Shown: positions 3,960 to 16,160, counted from the first letter of the stretch. The stretch is 64,000 nt of DNA from Bradymonadia bacterium (GCA_046290225.1 JBKAGE010000035.1:384001-448000), one strand, 5' to 3'. Made by a program: numbers and translations. Notes: generated by a model not told the origin, from the sequence alone.

Positions 3960-4436
3960 TCAGACCGGACGGCCGATGATCTTCTCGGCGACCTGCTTGG
4001 CGAGATCGTCGACCTGGCCGAGCATGGACTGCCGGGCGCTCTCGACGTCTGCCTTGATCCCCGCCCGTACCTCGTCGAGGTGAGCGGTGGTCTCTGCAGT
4101 GGCCTTGGCGATGGCAGCTTCCTTGGCATCGAGACCCTCACCGCGGAGCGCGGCACGAGCAGAAGACGCCTGGGTGCGGGCAGCGCCGTACTCTTCGTCG
4201 TACCGGGATGACAGCTCGGAAGCGCGGGCGTCCAGCACGCGGGCTTCCTGCCGGGTCTTCTCAGTCTTCTCGGTCCGACGGGCGTCGGCTTCGAGGAAGG
4301 GCTTGAAAACCAGGCCTCGCATGATCATCAGCAGCGCGAGAAAGAGGCCGAGTTGGATGAAGAAAGTCGCGTCGATGTCGATGAGACCCATCGACTGTAC
4401 AGTGACGTGAAGGGACTGCATGGTTGGTAATGTCAC
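3960..4436 (-). CDS. atpF: ATP synthase Fo subunit b'
   Basis: IDATFFIQLGLFLALLMIMRGLVFKPF then Ala-rich coiled coil ending IAEKI-like motif (VAEKIIGR). Exact start uncertain. Confidence 0.88.
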   Translation of the reverse strand: MTLPTMQSLHVTVQSMGLIDIDATFFIQLGLFLALLMIMRGLVFKPFLEADARRTEKTEKTRQEARVLDARASELSSRYDEEYGAARTQASSARAALRGEGLDAKEAAIAKATAETTAHLDEVRAGIKADVESARQSMLGQVDDLAKQVAEKIIGRPV

Positions 4437-4464
4437 CTTCCGTGCCTAGCCAAAAATTCGGCGC

Positions 4465-4493
4465 AACCTATCACCGCCCACCGGCAACGTCAA
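4465..4493 (-). promoter_or_regulatory. Putative sigma70 promoter of the atp operon
   Basis: Minus strand reads TTGACG-N17-TAGGTT with a TG extended -10, about 30 bp upstream of atpF'. Confidence 0.55.
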
Positions 4494-4555
4494 TCGGGAT
4501 TCTGTGGACAAATTGTGGGTTCACATGACTGTGATGACTACCCAGATGGGTGAAG

Positions 4556-5353
4556 TCAGCCAAAGGCGGCCCGGCGACGGTAGTCTTCGCCGTTCATCGG
4601 CTGCAGATGACACATCTCGATCAGCCGGGAGTAGATGCGCTCCCCGACGCGATCGACGAGGACCTGCTGGCCATCTGCGCCGCCGTTCCCACGGCCTGGC
4701 GCATAGTTCGTCGTGAACAATGTGGTGCGGTTGGCGTTGTACCGCTTGCTGATCAGCTCGTCCAGCACCGAGAGCTCCCACTCGGTGCCCCGCCCCTTGC
4801 CCAGCTCGTCGATGGCCAGCACCGGAATGTGAATCAAGGGTTCGATGAGGGCTTCAGCGCTGCCATGACGGCCCTGATCAAATGAGGCGCGCAGATCGGA
4901 CAGCAGGTGCATGAACTCCACGAACCGCACCTGCACCCCACGTTTGATCAGCAGGTGGCGCAAGATCGCCACCATCAAGTGGGTCTTCCCGGTCCCACAG
5001 GGTCCGTAATAAAGAATGCCACGCTGCCCCGCGACGAACTCCGAGGCAAACCGATTCGCCAGCGCCCGGGCGTTGCGCTTTTGCAGATCAGGCGTCTCGA
5101 AGTTCATGAACGAGGCCTGGTTGTACCGCGCGGGCAACCGGGCGTGGTTGTAGAACTTGATGCGTTGATCGAGGGGGCTGCACTCGCAGGGCACCGCGTT
5201 CGTGTAGCCCTGATCATTGGTGACGAAGGTGAAGCCCACGCCCCCGCAGAGGGTACACTTCACCTTGCAGGTGCACCGCTCGGCGAGGGAATAGTCGCCC
5301 TGGCGTTTGGAGACGATGAACTCATTGCCGCAAATCGGGCACTCGCGCTGCAT
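4556..5353 (-). CDS. DnaC/DnaI/IstB-family AAA+ ATPase (putative replicative helicase loader) with N-terminal Zn-binding Cys clusters
   Basis: CPIC, CTC, CTLCGG and CEC clusters; GPCGTGKTHL Walker A; IDELG Walker B; FTTN; GERIYSRLIEMC...GEDYR. Confidence 0.85.
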   Translation of the reverse strand: MQRECPICGNEFIVSKRQGDYSLAERCTCKVKCTLCGGVGFTFVTNDQGYTNAVPCECSPLDQRIKFYNHARLPARYNQASFMNFETPDLQKRNARALANRFASEFVAGQRGILYYGPCGTGKTHLMVAILRHLLIKRGVQVRFVEFMHLLSDLRASFDQGRHGSAEALIEPLIHIPVLAIDELGKGRGTEWELSVLDELISKRYNANRTTLFTTNYAPGRGNGGADGQQVLVDRVGERIYSRLIEMCHLQPMNGEDYRRRAAFG

Positions 5354-5404
5354 GGCTGAACTCTCTGAAAACGGAACCGGCGTAGAGCCTTTGTGAGGGT
5401 GTCC

Positions 5405-6172
5405 TCACCACGAAGGGGGCGCAAGCCTCAACTGCAGATCGGGCAAACCCAGATGACGACGCACCTGCCGCAGACGTTGTCGATCACGGGTGGCCTGCCA
5501 ATTGGTCTGGTTCGCCACCTTGCGCTCCGCGGCGAGCATATCATCGACCTTCGCCGACAACATCTCCTGGGTGTCCGCGTCGAGGCGATCCCAGAAGGCC
5601 TCGCTGGCCTTCTCTTCTAGAGATTCCAGAGCGGTGACCGGGTCTTCAATTTTTCCGATCAAGGCATCATCTCTGAGCTGAGTCAGGCGACCGAGCAGCA
5701 GATCGACGAGGGCGATCAACCGATCTTCGTGCAGATCGGCTCTGGCACGCTCGACCTGGCTGAGCAACAAGTCGAAGGCCCGGGTCAGCTCGGCCTGCTC
5801 TGCAGCGAGGGGCTGGTGCGGTGCGATCTCCGGTCTGGGTCGAGGATCACGTGCGGGGGGTGTCAGCGGCGTCGACGGGGGCACGACAGGGGTGCCCGCT
5901 TGAGGGGTCGGGCGGCTACCCACCTGCCGGGCACGCCACGCCTGAGCGACGGCGTCCACTGACTTGAGCACCGACTCGAGGCCTCTGATCGATTTGGTCT
6001 TCTTGCGATGATCGAAGGCCCGCTCGATGCCTTGGATCACCACCTCGGCGGGCAACCCCGCCCGAGCCCAACGTTGGATCATTTCGAGATCTCGAGCGGA
6101 GAGCATCAGCCCCTTGCCGCTCTGTTCGAGGAAGGCACGCTCAATGGCGTGAATGTAGGCGCGGTCGAGCAT
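5405..6172 (-). CDS. Hypothetical protein with N-terminal DnaD/DnaB_2-like helical domain, Pro-rich linker and helical C-terminal domain
   Basis: AFLEQSGKGLMLSARDLEMIQRWARAGLPAEVVIQGIERAF...SIRGLESVLKSV resembles the DnaD domain pattern; sits between gyrB and the DnaC-like gene. Confidence 0.6.
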   Translation of the reverse strand: MLDRAYIHAIERAFLEQSGKGLMLSARDLEMIQRWARAGLPAEVVIQGIERAFDHRKKTKSIRGLESVLKSVDAVAQAWRARQVGSRPTPQAGTPVVPPSTPLTPPARDPRPRPEIAPHQPLAAEQAELTRAFDLLLSQVERARADLHEDRLIALVDLLLGRLTQLRDDALIGKIEDPVTALESLEEKASEAFWDRLDADTQEMLSAKVDDMLAAERKVANQTNWQATRDRQRLRQVRRHLGLPDLQLRLAPPSW

Positions 6173-6200
6173 GGTGAGACCAGTGTTACCGGTTCACTGA

Positions 6201-8777
<2,577 letters not shown>

Positions 8778-8961
8778 TCAAGCGCCACCGGCTCGCCAAC
8801 CCCGCGTTTATGCGGCAAATCAGCGGCCTTGAGCGCTTTACATAAAGACGAAGAAATGTACCACAAAAGAGCGCCATCCACAAGTAAACCTGCGGACCCC
8901 AAACACCTGATTTTAAAGGGAAAAATATGGTGTGAACGGCGAGGGGGTCGAGGGGGCTGAA

Positions 8962-9486
8962 TCAGGCCTCCGCGGAGGCCTCTTCGGCGACCTTTCTGGG
9001 GGCTCTCGCAGGGGCCTTTTTGGCGAACTTCCTGGCCACTTCTGCAGGCTCCAGGAGCAGGGTGCGAGGCTCGCCTTCGCCGACGCTGCGGGTGCCCACC
9101 TCGTCGTCGCCCATGAGGGCGGTGTGCGCCAGGCGACGCTCTGCAGGGGAGAGGCCGTCGAGGACCCCTCGGCGACCCGTGCGCACCACCATATCGGCGA
9201 TCTCCACCACAGCGGCGCTGATGATGGCCTTGCGACGATCGAGATCACCCCCGACGTCGAGCGTGCAGCGTACGCGGCCGCCGGTGGCCTGAGAGGCCGC
9301 GCTCGAGGTCAGCTGGGTGATGGCGGTGACCAGCTCGGGATCACGCAGCTTGGAGATGCTGCCGGTGAGGCGCAGGATGATCTCGCCGTCGACCTCGGTG
9401 CCCTCGACGTCGATCGAGAGCTGCATGCGGTCGAAGAGGCCAGTCAAAAACTCGGAGGCCGCTTGAATGGCCTGACCGTTGCTCAT
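8962..9486 (-). CDS. jag: Jag/EloR (KhpB)-like RNA-binding protein with R3H domain, short form
   Basis: LSPAERRLAHTAL...TRSVGEGEPRTL R3H motif; canonical position after yidC; N-terminal Jag domain apparently absent. Confidence 0.8.
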   Translation of the reverse strand: MSNGQAIQAASEFLTGLFDRMQLSIDVEGTEVDGEIILRLTGSISKLRDPELVTAITQLTSSAASQATGGRVRCTLDVGGDLDRRKAIISAAVVEIADMVVRTGRRGVLDGLSPAERRLAHTALMGDDEVGTRSVGEGEPRTLLLEPAEVARKFAKKAPARAPRKVAEEASAEA

Positions 9487-9526
9487 GGAATTCTCCTGAA
9501 AATCGAGTGGAAAGCGTCGAGGGCGA

Positions 9527-11281
9527 TCAGGCCCGGGCGTTCTTGCCCTTCTTGAGGGAGGGCGCCGGCTCTGCTTCTGCCTTCTTCAACAGCACGTACT
9601 GCTGCACCAGACCCATGATGGTGTTGGCGGCAATGTACAGCACGAGGCCCGCCGGCAGGAACAGCATCATCAAGGTGAAGATGACCGGCATCAAATACAT
9701 GATGATCTTCTGCTGTGCCTGATCGCCCGCAGTGGGCGACAACCGGCTCTGCAAGAACATCAGCCCACCGAGGGCCAGAGGCAGAATGTAGAAGGGGTCG
9801 GGCTGGGACAAATCGTGAATCCAGCCACCCAGATCAGCCTGGTACAGCTCCACCGAAGAGTAGATCGTCCGGTACAGGGCCAGGTAGATGGGCATCATCA
9901 GCACCACCGGCAGGCACCCGGCAAGAGGGTTCACGTTGTGCTCTTTGTAGAGCTTCATGATCTCTTGCTGCTGCTTGAGCTTGTCCTCCTTGTACTTGGC
10001 CTGAAGCGCCTTCATCTGAGGCTGGATCTTCTTCATGGAGGCCATGGACTTGTACTGCTTCTGGGTAAGAGGCAGCGTGAGCAGCTTCACGAGGATGGTG
10101 AGCAGCACGATGGCGATGCCCCAGTTGCCCACCCAGCTGAAGAAGAGCCGCATGATCTTGAGCATGGGCACCGAGACCACGGTGAACCAGCCGAAGTCTA
10201 CGGCGTCGCTCATGGGGGGCGTGGTGGCGCTCACCACTTCGTACTTCTTCGGGCCGCCGTAAATCTGGAACTTGCGGGAGAGCGTCTGGCCAGGCTCGAG
10301 CTTGGAGGCGCCGAAGTCGGCCACCGTGACGGCGAGGCTGAAGCCCACGGGGATCTTGGTGGTCTCGGGCAGACCGGCGTTCTTGGGATCGACGAAGAAC
10401 TCACACGCCTTGATGGGATCAGCGCCGACGCCGGGCAGCATACCCATCATGAAGTAACGGTTGTTCACCGCGGCCCACTGCACCCCGTTGGCGAAGGCGG
10501 TCGGCTCTTCCGGGTCGTTCAGATCGCTGGCCACGGAGGCGATCATCTCCCGGTGGAAGACCTCTTTCTCCTGACACAACGACTCAAACAGGTAGATCGG
10601 GGGGGTGAACATCGAGCCAGTGGCTTCGCTGTCGTTCTGAAGGCCGGCCATACGACCCTTCAAGGCCACGTCGACGGCGGCATTGCCCGTGTTGCGCACG
10701 GTGACCTCGCCATCAAGCACGTACTGCAGATCGCTCACCCGCCAAGTGCGGACGATCTCCAAACCCGTCGTGGCATCACGGTGGGTGAAGCTCACCGACT
10801 TGGCATCATCTGCGACCTTGGCGTCGTACACCCCGACGACCGAAAGATCGTTCGCCAGCACGTCGAGCTGAGGCGGCAGGAAGACGCTCTTGTCGTCGGC
10901 CTCACCGAGCGGACGCACGAAGCGATCAGGCTTCAGCCCGTCATCGGTCTTGATCAGGTACTGATCTTCAGTGAGGGACCACGACTTCAACGCGCCGTTC
11001 AGGTTCGACAGCTCGAGGTTGAAGAGATCGCCGGCCTTGAGGCCAGTGATCTTCTCGAGGCTGGGGTCGAGAACCGGGATCTTCGGCGCGGGCTTCTCGT
11101 CGGGCTTCGTAGCGTCTCCGCCAGCCTTGCCTTGCTCACCACCGTTCTGAGCCACGCCCGCATCAGGGGCGTTCTGCTTCGGGGGTGGCTGCTGAGGGAA
11201 CATATAGGTCCAGAGGGCCAGGACCACGCCACTCATCACCACCGCGAGGATCATCCGCCGGTAGTCGGTGTTCTCATTCAT
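9527..11281 (-). CDS. yidC: Membrane protein insertase YidC
   Basis: [46 protein letters not shown]. Confidence 0.97.
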
Positions 11282-14567: not shown

Positions 14568-15434
14568 TCAACGTTCGACACCTGCCGAACGGGAGGCCAG
14601 TTGCCACTGCTTGGGCGTCACCCCATGATGTCGAGCGAAGGCCTGAACAAAATGGGAGAGGTTCCCGAACCCACACTCGGCACATGCATCCGTGACCGAG
14701 ATGTCGGATCCTTGCAGCAAGTCTGCGGCGAGGCCGAGACGACGCGTTCTCAACCAACGACCCGGTGAGATGCCATAGCTCGCCCGAAAGTCCCGCTTGA
14801 ACTTCGACAAGCTCCGCCCACTCAGCGCGGCGAACTCTTCGAGACCAAGTGGCGATCTGAAGTGCCTCTCCATCGTCTCTCGCAGACGCCCCTCGTGCTC
14901 TACGCCGAATCGAACGCCGTCCACCAGAATGCGACATCCTCGGACCGACTCGTGGATCAGCCGCAACACGATCTCTTCGAGCCTGAGTTTGACGATCCGC
15001 CGGCCGAGAGATCCCTCGACAGCCTCCGAGACATCACGCACCAGCGTCTGAATTGATGGCAGGGGATCCACGAGACAACCTTCCGTCCACGCCTCGCTGT
15101 TGTAGCTGGAGGCAGGGATGGTGCGCACCAGGTAGTCCGCGTCGAAGGCGATGACGGTGCTTTCGTATGCACCGTGCTCCGGGATCACTTCGGACATGTA
15201 CCGAAAGCCCACGGGCAGGAGCACCACCTCACCTGCCTGTACCACCTGGATCGGCTCACCTGGCACGCGCAGCTGCTTGATGCCTCTACGCACGTACACG
15301 AGGGTGGGGTGGGCGACCAGGACTGGCAGATCAGCCACGCCCTCCAGGTTGCGATACGCCACCACCCAGGCAGCGCGACTTCGCAGCACCGACCCACGGC
15401 CTCCGTCTTGTAAATCCCTCGGGATGGTCAACAT
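14568..15434 (-). CDS. AraC/XylS-family transcriptional regulator (N-terminal cupin-like domain)
   Basis: LEEFAALSGRSLSKFKRDF...SPGRWL...SVTDACAECGFGNLSHFVQAFARHHGVTPKQW. Confidence 0.92.
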   Translation of the reverse strand: MLTIPRDLQDGGRGSVLRSRAAWVVAYRNLEGVADLPVLVAHPTLVYVRRGIKQLRVPGEPIQVVQAGEVVLLPVGFRYMSEVIPEHGAYESTVIAFDADYLVRTIPASSYNSEAWTEGCLVDPLPSIQTLVRDVSEAVEGSLGRRIVKLRLEEIVLRLIHESVRGCRILVDGVRFGVEHEGRLRETMERHFRSPLGLEEFAALSGRSLSKFKRDFRASYGISPGRWLRTRRLGLAADLLQGSDISVTDACAECGFGNLSHFVQAFARHHGVTPKQWQLASRSAGVER

Positions 15435-15807: not shown

Positions 15808-16160
15808 TGATCCACACGCTCTCGGTGGGGTGCGCTGACCCCAGAGCGCATTCGACACCGTTGAGCTCCGTATTACCGATTCGTTAATGGCCACATCTGG
15901 TGCCTACACATCGGTGGGATCTGCGGATCCGTGATCCACAGCGATCAGTGGGTGCCTCTGGGGGAAACTTGTGGATAAACTGTGGTCGAAATGTGGACAA
16001 AAATGAAGGAGAAGATATCCCCATGTTGTCCACAGAGGTTATCGACGGATCCTGTTGAGAAAAACGATCATAAAAATCGTAGGCTTGCCTAGTTTATCCA
16101 CAAATCCACAGCGCCTACTGTTATTACGATCTCCACATAAGATCTGATCGATCCTGTACA
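15808..16160. other. Chromosomal replication origin (oriC)
   Basis: Perfect DnaA boxes at 15970-15978 (TGTGGATAA) and 16094-16102 (TTATCCACA). Near-matches at 15808, 15932, 15992, 16026 and 16102. Followed by GCGCC and trio-like CTACTGTTATTACGA; A/T-richer than flanks; directly upstream of dnaN. Confidence 0.92.

Follow-up and report, generated by a model that had tools for sequence, protein, structure and literature searches.

Two adjacent genes in the window, the whole 64,000-nucleotide stretch of Bradymonadia bacterium DNA analysed here, probably code for an unlisted, phage-related helicase loader of the DnaC type that is resident in its host lineage, and for an adaptor protein acting with it, as judged from sequence comparison, complex modelling and analogy with characterised loaders. 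This role is suggested by the co-occurrence of the two genes, their vertical-looking inheritance, the intact DnaC-type residues of the ATPase and the homology of the N-terminal domain of its partner to a phage initiator whose gene precedes a DnaC-like gene. A first-pass annotation of the locus had proposed a domesticated pair serving as the chromosomal loader for want of DciA; residency, the DnaC signatures and the phage relatives make the loader plausible, but the part concerning DciA did not hold.

Genomic context of the gene pair

The minus strand of the window carries, in order, yidC, jag and gyrB (6201-8765, with Pfam gyrase B domains), an ORF of 255 amino acids (P0002, the partner; 5405-6172) with DnaB_2-like and DnaD-like profile matches, an ORF of 265 amino acids (P0001, the ATPase and proposed loader; 4556-5353) and an ATP synthase b' gene. 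The spacings of 28 bp between gyrB and the partner gene and of 51 bp between the partner and ATPase genes are as first annotated, and 119 bp separate the ATPase gene from the F0 b' gene. The upstream gene of the probable transcript is gyrB; no promoter-like sites occur in 4300-9600 and no terminator-like sites in either intergenic gap of gyrB-partner-ATPase, with one terminator-like match located inside the ATPase gene. The gyrB product has an acidic Pro/Glu-rich insert near residues 670-710, and no gyrA follows the gene.

The pair had also been described as lying next to oriC. A cluster of DnaA boxes before dnaN (15808-16102, no strand assigned; seven one-mismatch matches, two perfect) likely marks oriC, which places it approximately 10 kb from the pair; the cluster holds seven of the 30 one-mismatch matches in the window, a whole-window count that is itself at chance level. 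The gyrB gene is found outside the dnaA-dnaN-recF run, on the other side of dnaA and behind yidC-jag. Between dnaA and the DnaA-box cluster is a gene for an AraC-type regulator (14568-15434, minus strand; labelled by reading its translation). One further one-mismatch DnaA box (4503-4511) occurs between the ATPase stop codon and the ATP synthase operon, single matches being at chance level here.

Homology and catalytic residues of the ATPase

P0001 matches PF01695 (1.8e-20; 73.9 bits against a cut-off of 24.1) and PHROG 50, 'DnaC-like helicase loader' (4e-54). It scores under the curated NCBIfam cut-offs for DnaC (NF005931; 65.7 against 357 bits), DnaI (NF006505; 61.4 against 228) and IstB (NF038214; 82.4 against 200 bits), and among the Pfam profiles the DnaI_N domain PF07319 has no match in it. 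When a P0001 profile was compared with solved proteins, Aquifex DnaC (3ecc, 3.4e-41) and E. coli DnaC (8.8e-28) ranked ahead of DnaI-type proteins (3e-23 to 2e-18) and IstB (1e-15), while Foldseek with the P0001 model (pLDDT 93) likewise placed Aquifex DnaC (3ecc, 8.5e-14) and E. coli DnaC at the top, followed closely by DnaI and IstB. Many orthologues are already named 'DNA replication protein DnaC' by automatic annotation. The language-model neighbours of the ATPase, which serve as leads only, are clusters from Myxococcota, Acidobacteriota, Aminicenantes, Sumerlaeota, phage and Aquificota.

Alignment to E. coli DnaC locates Walker A (K123), Walker B (D182/E183), sensor I (N216), the arginine coupler (R239), the arginine finger (R243) and sensor II (R259) in the AAA+ domain (4568-5149, minus strand), the aligned E. 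coli positions being K112, E170, N203, R216, R220 and R237. Each of K123, E183, N216, R239, R243 and R259 is kept in 52-54 of 54 resident ATPases. According to the accessible part of PMC8213410, the arginine coupler does not vary in DnaC, and IstB has a small residue in its place; the position is Arg in 53 of the 54 residents and Ala or Val in all four IstB proteins compared, while the position of the IstB Walker-B-loop Tyr is K or R in all 54 (K186 in P0001). Read from these positions, the active site is of the DnaC rather than the IstB type. The N-terminal region (residues 5-58; 5180-5341, minus strand) contains eight cysteines arranged as CxxC..CxC..CxxC..CxC, of which C33, C36 and C56 are invariant and the remainder at least 90% conserved in an alignment of 30 rows. 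The strands E13-26 and E41-55 are modelled in this region (pLDDT 93), and the cysteines presumably form two Zn sites with two beta-hairpins. The first label for the protein, a Zn-binding AAA+ ATPase of the DnaC/DnaI/IstB type, can be narrowed to the DnaC type, with the eight cysteines borne out, the Zn sites presumed and IstB set aside.

IS21 IstB was rejected as an identity on account of the missing istA, the coupler R239, K186 in place of Tyr and the score under NF038214. The earlier observation that no istA transposase is nearby was borne out, as the gene upstream is that of the partner and the IS21 transposase model NF033546 has no matches in this 99%-complete genome.

A partner protein with one DnaD-like domain

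P0002 is barely over the cut-off of the Pfam DnaB_2 profile PF07261 (22.9 against 22 bits, residues 16-79) and also matches PHROG 7498, 'DnaD-like helicase loader' (3.7e-10). Together with HHalign, these matches delimit a DnaD/DnaB_2-like four-helix domain at residues 7-89 (5906-6154, minus strand). PHROG 7498 matches 16 of 28 partner members, PF07261 three of the 28 and none of 32 Acidobacteriota-like members. In the P0002 model, a four-helix part (4-85) is joined by a flexible linker rich in Pro to a C-terminal domain of five helices; no known relative of this domain was found in the sequence and full-length-model structure searches run: sequence searches returned no solved relatives of the partner, Foldseek with the full-length model nothing at E<=0.001 and VIA-align generic helical hairpins only. 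YxxxIxxxW, given as the motif of DnaD/DnaB accessory proteins in the accessible part of PMC13326638, is absent as such from the partner alignment, where the family pattern is LxYxxxxVE with a later, variable W; P0002 has S at the Y of this pattern. The DnaB_2-like domain of P0002 begins at residue 7-16, which leaves no room for an N-terminal oligomerisation/DnaA-binding domain. The DnaD/DnaB_2-like N-terminus claimed at first is upheld by PF07261 (marginally), PHROG 7498 and a phage DnaD-like protein, but lacks YxxxIxxxW and the N-terminal domain, and PF07261 misses most members. On sequence grounds the partner is DnaD-like in one domain and is not a DnaD orthologue; by analogy, it is proposed to be an adaptor. 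The accessible part of PMC13326638 describes the DnaB_2-domain protein DnaB of B. subtilis as bridging DnaA, DnaD and DnaI.

The phage protein in question is gp77 of Brevibacillus phage Jimmer1, the C-terminal part of which is 38% identical to the partner N-domain over residues 7-85 (HHalign 97.4%). It is annotated as DnaD-like and is immediately followed by the DnaC-like gene gp78, such that the Jimmer1 cassette (PHROG 7498 plus PHROG 50) shares both gene order and the partner N-domain with the pair. Approximately 215 N-terminal residues of gp77 are, however, absent from the partner, a new C-domain has been added, and the pair is chromosomal, single-copy and vertically transmitted in appearance. 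Jimmer1-type proteins are the sole phage match to the partner (four records among 50,697, from two phages).

The partner family extends to 2,208 clusters (50% identity) at E<=1e-10, among its members proteins of Pyrinomonas and Chloracidobacterium that align along their full length (HHalign 100%). In Acidobacteriota-like metagenome loci the partner gene occupies a housekeeping context, birA-coaX-partner-rlmD-comEC (labels by reading translations), and none of the 80 loci, many of them short, carries the ATPase. The Acidobacteriota-like partners end in a conserved PRLSLFYL-like tail that is reminiscent of the B. subtilis DnaB tail binding DnaI.

Distribution and inheritance

A phylum sample of 201 genomes (at least 92% complete) contains 115 that encode the ATPase (E<=1e-30), and exactly these 115 also encode the partner (E<=1e-11). 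Each gene is nearly always single-copy, and families are all-or-none for the pair. As 28 of these sequences went into the partner profile, the identity of the two sets is circular for the corresponding genomes only. Both genes are present but unlinked in all 20 genomes of family f6, so that their co-occurrence is more than linkage. A strong ATPase orthologue is encoded by 39 of 41 relatives, and 18 of 19 loci from the family keep the gyrB-partner-ATPase order. In a set of 80 named loci, 61 have the partner gene directly upstream of the ATPase gene and 33 have the position behind gyrB, other contexts being found elsewhere; many partner/ATPase pairs overlap by 4 bp. The claim of a module of this lineage tied to gyrB consequently fits the family but is too narrow for the other families and for the unlinked genes of f6. 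The closest relatives that bear a name are assigned to Bradymonadia, Myxococcota or Myxococcales, so that the host probably belongs to Myxococcota in the wide sense. Among the carriers with names are Anaeromyxobacter oryzae, A. oryzisoli and a Myxococcaceae MAG. A second draw, taken around A. oryzae, had the ATPase in 60 of 121 genomes and the partner in all four loci checked there. Many families of Myxococcota sensu lato carry the pair, and the partner reaches into Acidobacteriota as well.

Several groups are common to the quick trees of the ATPase and DnaB (f1, f21, f13, f11, f27+f15+f33+f34, f37+f43+f46+f48, and the Anaeromyxobacter and Myxococcaceae-type sets), the backbones of which are unresolved; 23 of the 110 ATPase-like rows had been removed as partial or nearly identical to others. 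The ATPase and DnaB distances are correlated over 49 genomes (Mantel r 0.49, a value reached in none of 2000 permutations). In the ATPase tree the IstB proteins group by themselves (support 99); the group containing the residents (support 95) also includes five viral sequences and four that are second copies or weak hits. The pair is thus a resident and conserved one, with vertical-looking inheritance.

These observations bear on the very improbable reading of the pair as a mobile or decaying element, either an IS21 IstB or the remnant of a prophage replication module. In its favour are the identity of PF01695 as the IstB family, the existence of homologues of both genes in phages and an AU test that did not reject a grouping of f1 with IstB (p 0.156), although this test is poorly posed on an unrooted tree. 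Against this, the genome has no IS21 transposase, the flanks are housekeeping genes, the distribution is single-copy, family-wide and tree-congruent, the GC3 of the pair genes (0.83 and 0.73) is inside the range of the neighbours (0.63-0.92), and the best phage and plasmid ATPase matches are 22-34% identical as compared to 34-67% among chromosomal orthologues. A prophage remnant was rejected on residency, tree congruence, housekeeping flanks and low identity to the phage matches.

The closest viral relatives of the ATPase are encoded on four viral contigs (30-34% identity, one CxxC, no partner alongside), and no partner gene was found beside any of 80 viral ATPase matches. Elsewhere in this genome (C45:77125-82400), a second, phage-like DnaB helicase is encoded together with a weak DnaC-like ATPase nearby and a methyltransferase-like ORF, in what resembles a prophage replication module distinct from the resident pair.

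Predicted contact with DnaB

Modelling of the ATPase with DnaB, proposed in the first-pass annotation, was carried out with two copies of the genome's own DnaB C-terminal domain and one ATPase, and predicted a contact with a score of 0.63, the best of three controls reaching 0.00. Runs agree in at least 86% of contacts and the partner pLDDT is at least 79. Among solved complexes, 116 of 157 attain the score mark, as do two of 215 mismatched pairs, although these counts are only rough for the 2+1 layout and the custom alignments, both of which are outside the calibration, and the score may reflect likeness to solved DnaB-DnaC/DnaI complexes. The second hairpin (residues 39-55; 5189-5239, minus strand) makes the predicted contact, touching one of the DnaB copies at the equivalents of E. 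coli 210-215, 251, 278, 452 and 461-464; DnaC, lambda P and DciA use a different site, the LH-DH module. The site of DnaI on the helicase is not settled in the accessible text of PMC9912922. Pair-positive and pair-negative genomes cannot be told apart by the DnaB residues that lie at the predicted interface. The DnaB 'determinant residue', which in Enterobacterales is Ser in dciA species and Gly in dnaC species, is variable in all three genome classes here and thus uninformative.

Coexistence with dciA

Directly after recF is a MurA-like ORF (labelled by reading the sequence), in agreement with the initial remark that no dciA follows recF. An intact dciA is, however, found on another contig (C34:57662-57907; 40.4 bits against a 24-bit cut-off; full-length ORF of 168 amino acids), as it is in nine of ten family relatives, and the premise that the pair is used since DciA is missing therefore fails. 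An intact dciA alongside a patchy and dispensable pair had been named in advance as evidence against a loader; the dciA is indeed intact, but the pair is all-or-none by family rather than patchy.

With Pfam PF05258, the 201-genome sample divides into 41 of the 115 pair genomes that also have dciA, 74 with the pair only, 83 with dciA only and approximately three with neither (draws differ by at least one genome). A lineage-specific dciA profile built from 21 diverged proteins, which found six of six positive controls, recovered two more dciA genes among the 74 (in G183 and G151; missed by Pfam, one of them in the profile itself), giving approximately 43 genomes with both and 72 with the pair only; nine other genomes with only dciA fragments at E 0.002-0.04 were counted as negative. 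No dciA was found in families f13 (17 genomes), f27 (12), f21 (11), f15 (9), f3 (4) and f40 (3); the pair-only families are mostly fragmented assemblies, such that dciA is 'not found' there, though consistently by family. Approximately 83 of the 86 pair-less genomes have dciA. Around Anaeromyxobacter, dciA is kept in 57 of 60 ATPase-positive genomes and is often high-scoring. In genomes with the pair, dciA scores lower than in those without it (median -log10 E of 8.6 versus 16.1), which may reflect relaxation or just lineage. A DnaB quick tree of 81 rows, which were chosen to represent groups and the backbone of which is unresolved, requires at least four changes of the pair and at least seven of dciA, and all 24 dciA-negative rows are pair-positive; the four independent contrasts on well-supported branches between dciA loss and pair presence are not significant. 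The complementarity of pair and dciA counts in favour of a loader role, while the intact dciA of this genome, of approximately 43 among the 115 genomes with the pair and of 57 of the 60 ATPase-positive ones around Anaeromyxobacter counts against it, as a loader is already present there.

The latter genomes could instead reflect a division of labour, in which DciA would load DnaB at oriC and the pair would serve as a restart or stress/developmental loader at stalled forks. In Bacillus, DnaD, DnaB and DnaI also serve PriA restart. Full-length dciA is stably retained together with the pair in f1, in f6 and around Anaeromyxobacter, the predicted DnaB site unlike that of DciA would allow both to bind, and in one genome of the Anaeromyxobacter-centred draw (G307; C8, L431:2976-5090) the partner, ATPase and dciA genes are contiguous on one strand. 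This reading is nevertheless rather unlikely, since in the 72 genomes without detectable dciA, among them the whole of f13, f27, f21 and f15, the pair would have to serve oriC too.

It is also distinctly unlikely that the ATPase, as a resident member of the initiator clade, has a job other than DnaB loading, such as Hda-like regulation of DnaA or DNA remodelling with gyrase. Weak DnaA/Hda profile matches of P0001, the gyrB linkage, the partner C-domain without known relative and the atypical predicted DnaB interface would fit such a role, but loaders outrank DnaA/Hda in all sequence and fold searches, the arginine coupler is kept, nearly all genomes that lack dciA are ones with the pair and gyrB linkage is absent in 47 of the 80 named loci.

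Comparison with known helicase loading systems

For the preferred reading, a DnaC-type loader with an adaptor, the closest counterparts of the ATPase are Aquifex aeolicus DnaC (3ECC/3EC2) and E. coli DnaC (6QEL/6QEM), with which it shares the PF01695 AAA+ fold and the six catalytic motifs including the coupler. The N-domain has eight cysteines, whereas that of E. coli DnaC is a helical helicase-binding domain. IS21 IstB shares the Pfam family and fold but differs in its association with IstA, Ala/Val at the coupler position, the Walker-B-loop Tyr, the lack of a Cys-rich, presumed Zn-binding N-domain, and mobility. The Bacillus DnaD/DnaB plus DnaI system, as described in the accessible part of PMC13326638, similarly combines a DnaB_2-domain accessory protein with an AAA+ loader bearing a Cys-rich N-domain; here, by contrast, there is one accessory protein with an N-terminal DnaB_2-like domain and an unrelated helical domain, there is no PF07319 and no YxxxIxxxW as such, and the hosts are of Gram-negative type.

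Domesticated dna[CI] loaders (PMC5109545) have chromosomal residency and congruence with the host phylogeny in common with the pair, which differs in its obligate DnaD-like partner, in a lineage outside the seven listed domestications and in occurring (as the ATPase in the Anaeromyxobacter draw) together with dciA in approximately 100 sampled genomes. The absence of dciA by which such loaders are recognised hence does not extend to this pair. VdhL1 and VdhL2 of Vibrionaceae are likewise virus-derived loaders, there replacing dciA, and three Vibrionaceae genomes hold both dciA and vdhL2, according to the accessible part of PMC11087808; VdhL is, however, not a PF01695 ATPase and the events are recent, whereas the coexistence observed here spans families and orders.

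None of 1,426 genomes was reported to co-maintain dciA and a resident dnaC/I, which was termed a striking discovery (Brezellec et al. 2016, PMC5109545), and the mutual exclusion is repeated in the accessible part of a 2023 structural paper. The approximately 100 genomes with both (at the level of the ATPase in the Anaeromyxobacter draw) conflict with this rule. At the Pfam level, the tables of PMC5109545 list one PF01695 protein together with dciA for each of Stigmatella and A. dehalogenans 2CP-C, and four PF01695 proteins with dciA for M. xanthus. Six of six Leptospira genomes (Supplementary Data 1, rows 1337-1342) have exactly one PF01695 protein plus dciA, and the former may be another overlooked resident DnaC. 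A homologue from a Leptospira phage record is placed outside the studied group in the ATPase tree. No description of the pair was found in the literature searched, a scope that excluded most subscription papers, and the accessible parts of bioRxiv 10.1101/2022.01.24.477630, PMC8216460, PMC9912922, PMC8213410 and PMC13326638 make no mention of it. New here, within the domesticated DnaC/DnaI kind, are the obligate new partner and the large-scale coexistence with dciA.

Proposed mechanism and implications

By analogy with E. coli DnaC and with DnaB/DnaD/DnaI of B. subtilis, the partner would bring loader and helicase to the DnaA-opened oriC, and perhaps to restart sites, and ATP-dependent oligomerisation of the ATPase on single-stranded DNA would deposit the DnaB ring. 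From the complex modelling, the ATPase is predicted to grip the DnaB C-terminal domain with its second, presumed Zn-binding hairpin. The history would be one of an old capture of a phage initiator-loader cassette, after which the pair would have coexisted with dciA in some lineages while dciA was lost several times in others. With approximately 100 genomes holding both and 72 the pair only, why and how one loader replaces the other becomes testable in culturable soil myxobacteria. The loader role would also give a function to the large unannotated partner family (2,208 clusters at 50% identity), and would add an unlisted domestication of a phage replication cassette. More tentatively, and with the balance tilted against it, an old and so far unrecognised class of two-component loaders, each an eight-Cys DnaC-type ATPase with an adaptor of a new family, may run initiation across much of Myxococcota sensu lato and probably Acidobacteriota, gripping DnaB outside the LH-DH module. 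If this is true, the distinct site would explain how whole orders can have DciA as well, the exclusion rule for dciA and dna[CI] would be overturned, and living genomes would preserve three stages, with DciA only, with both systems and with the pair only.
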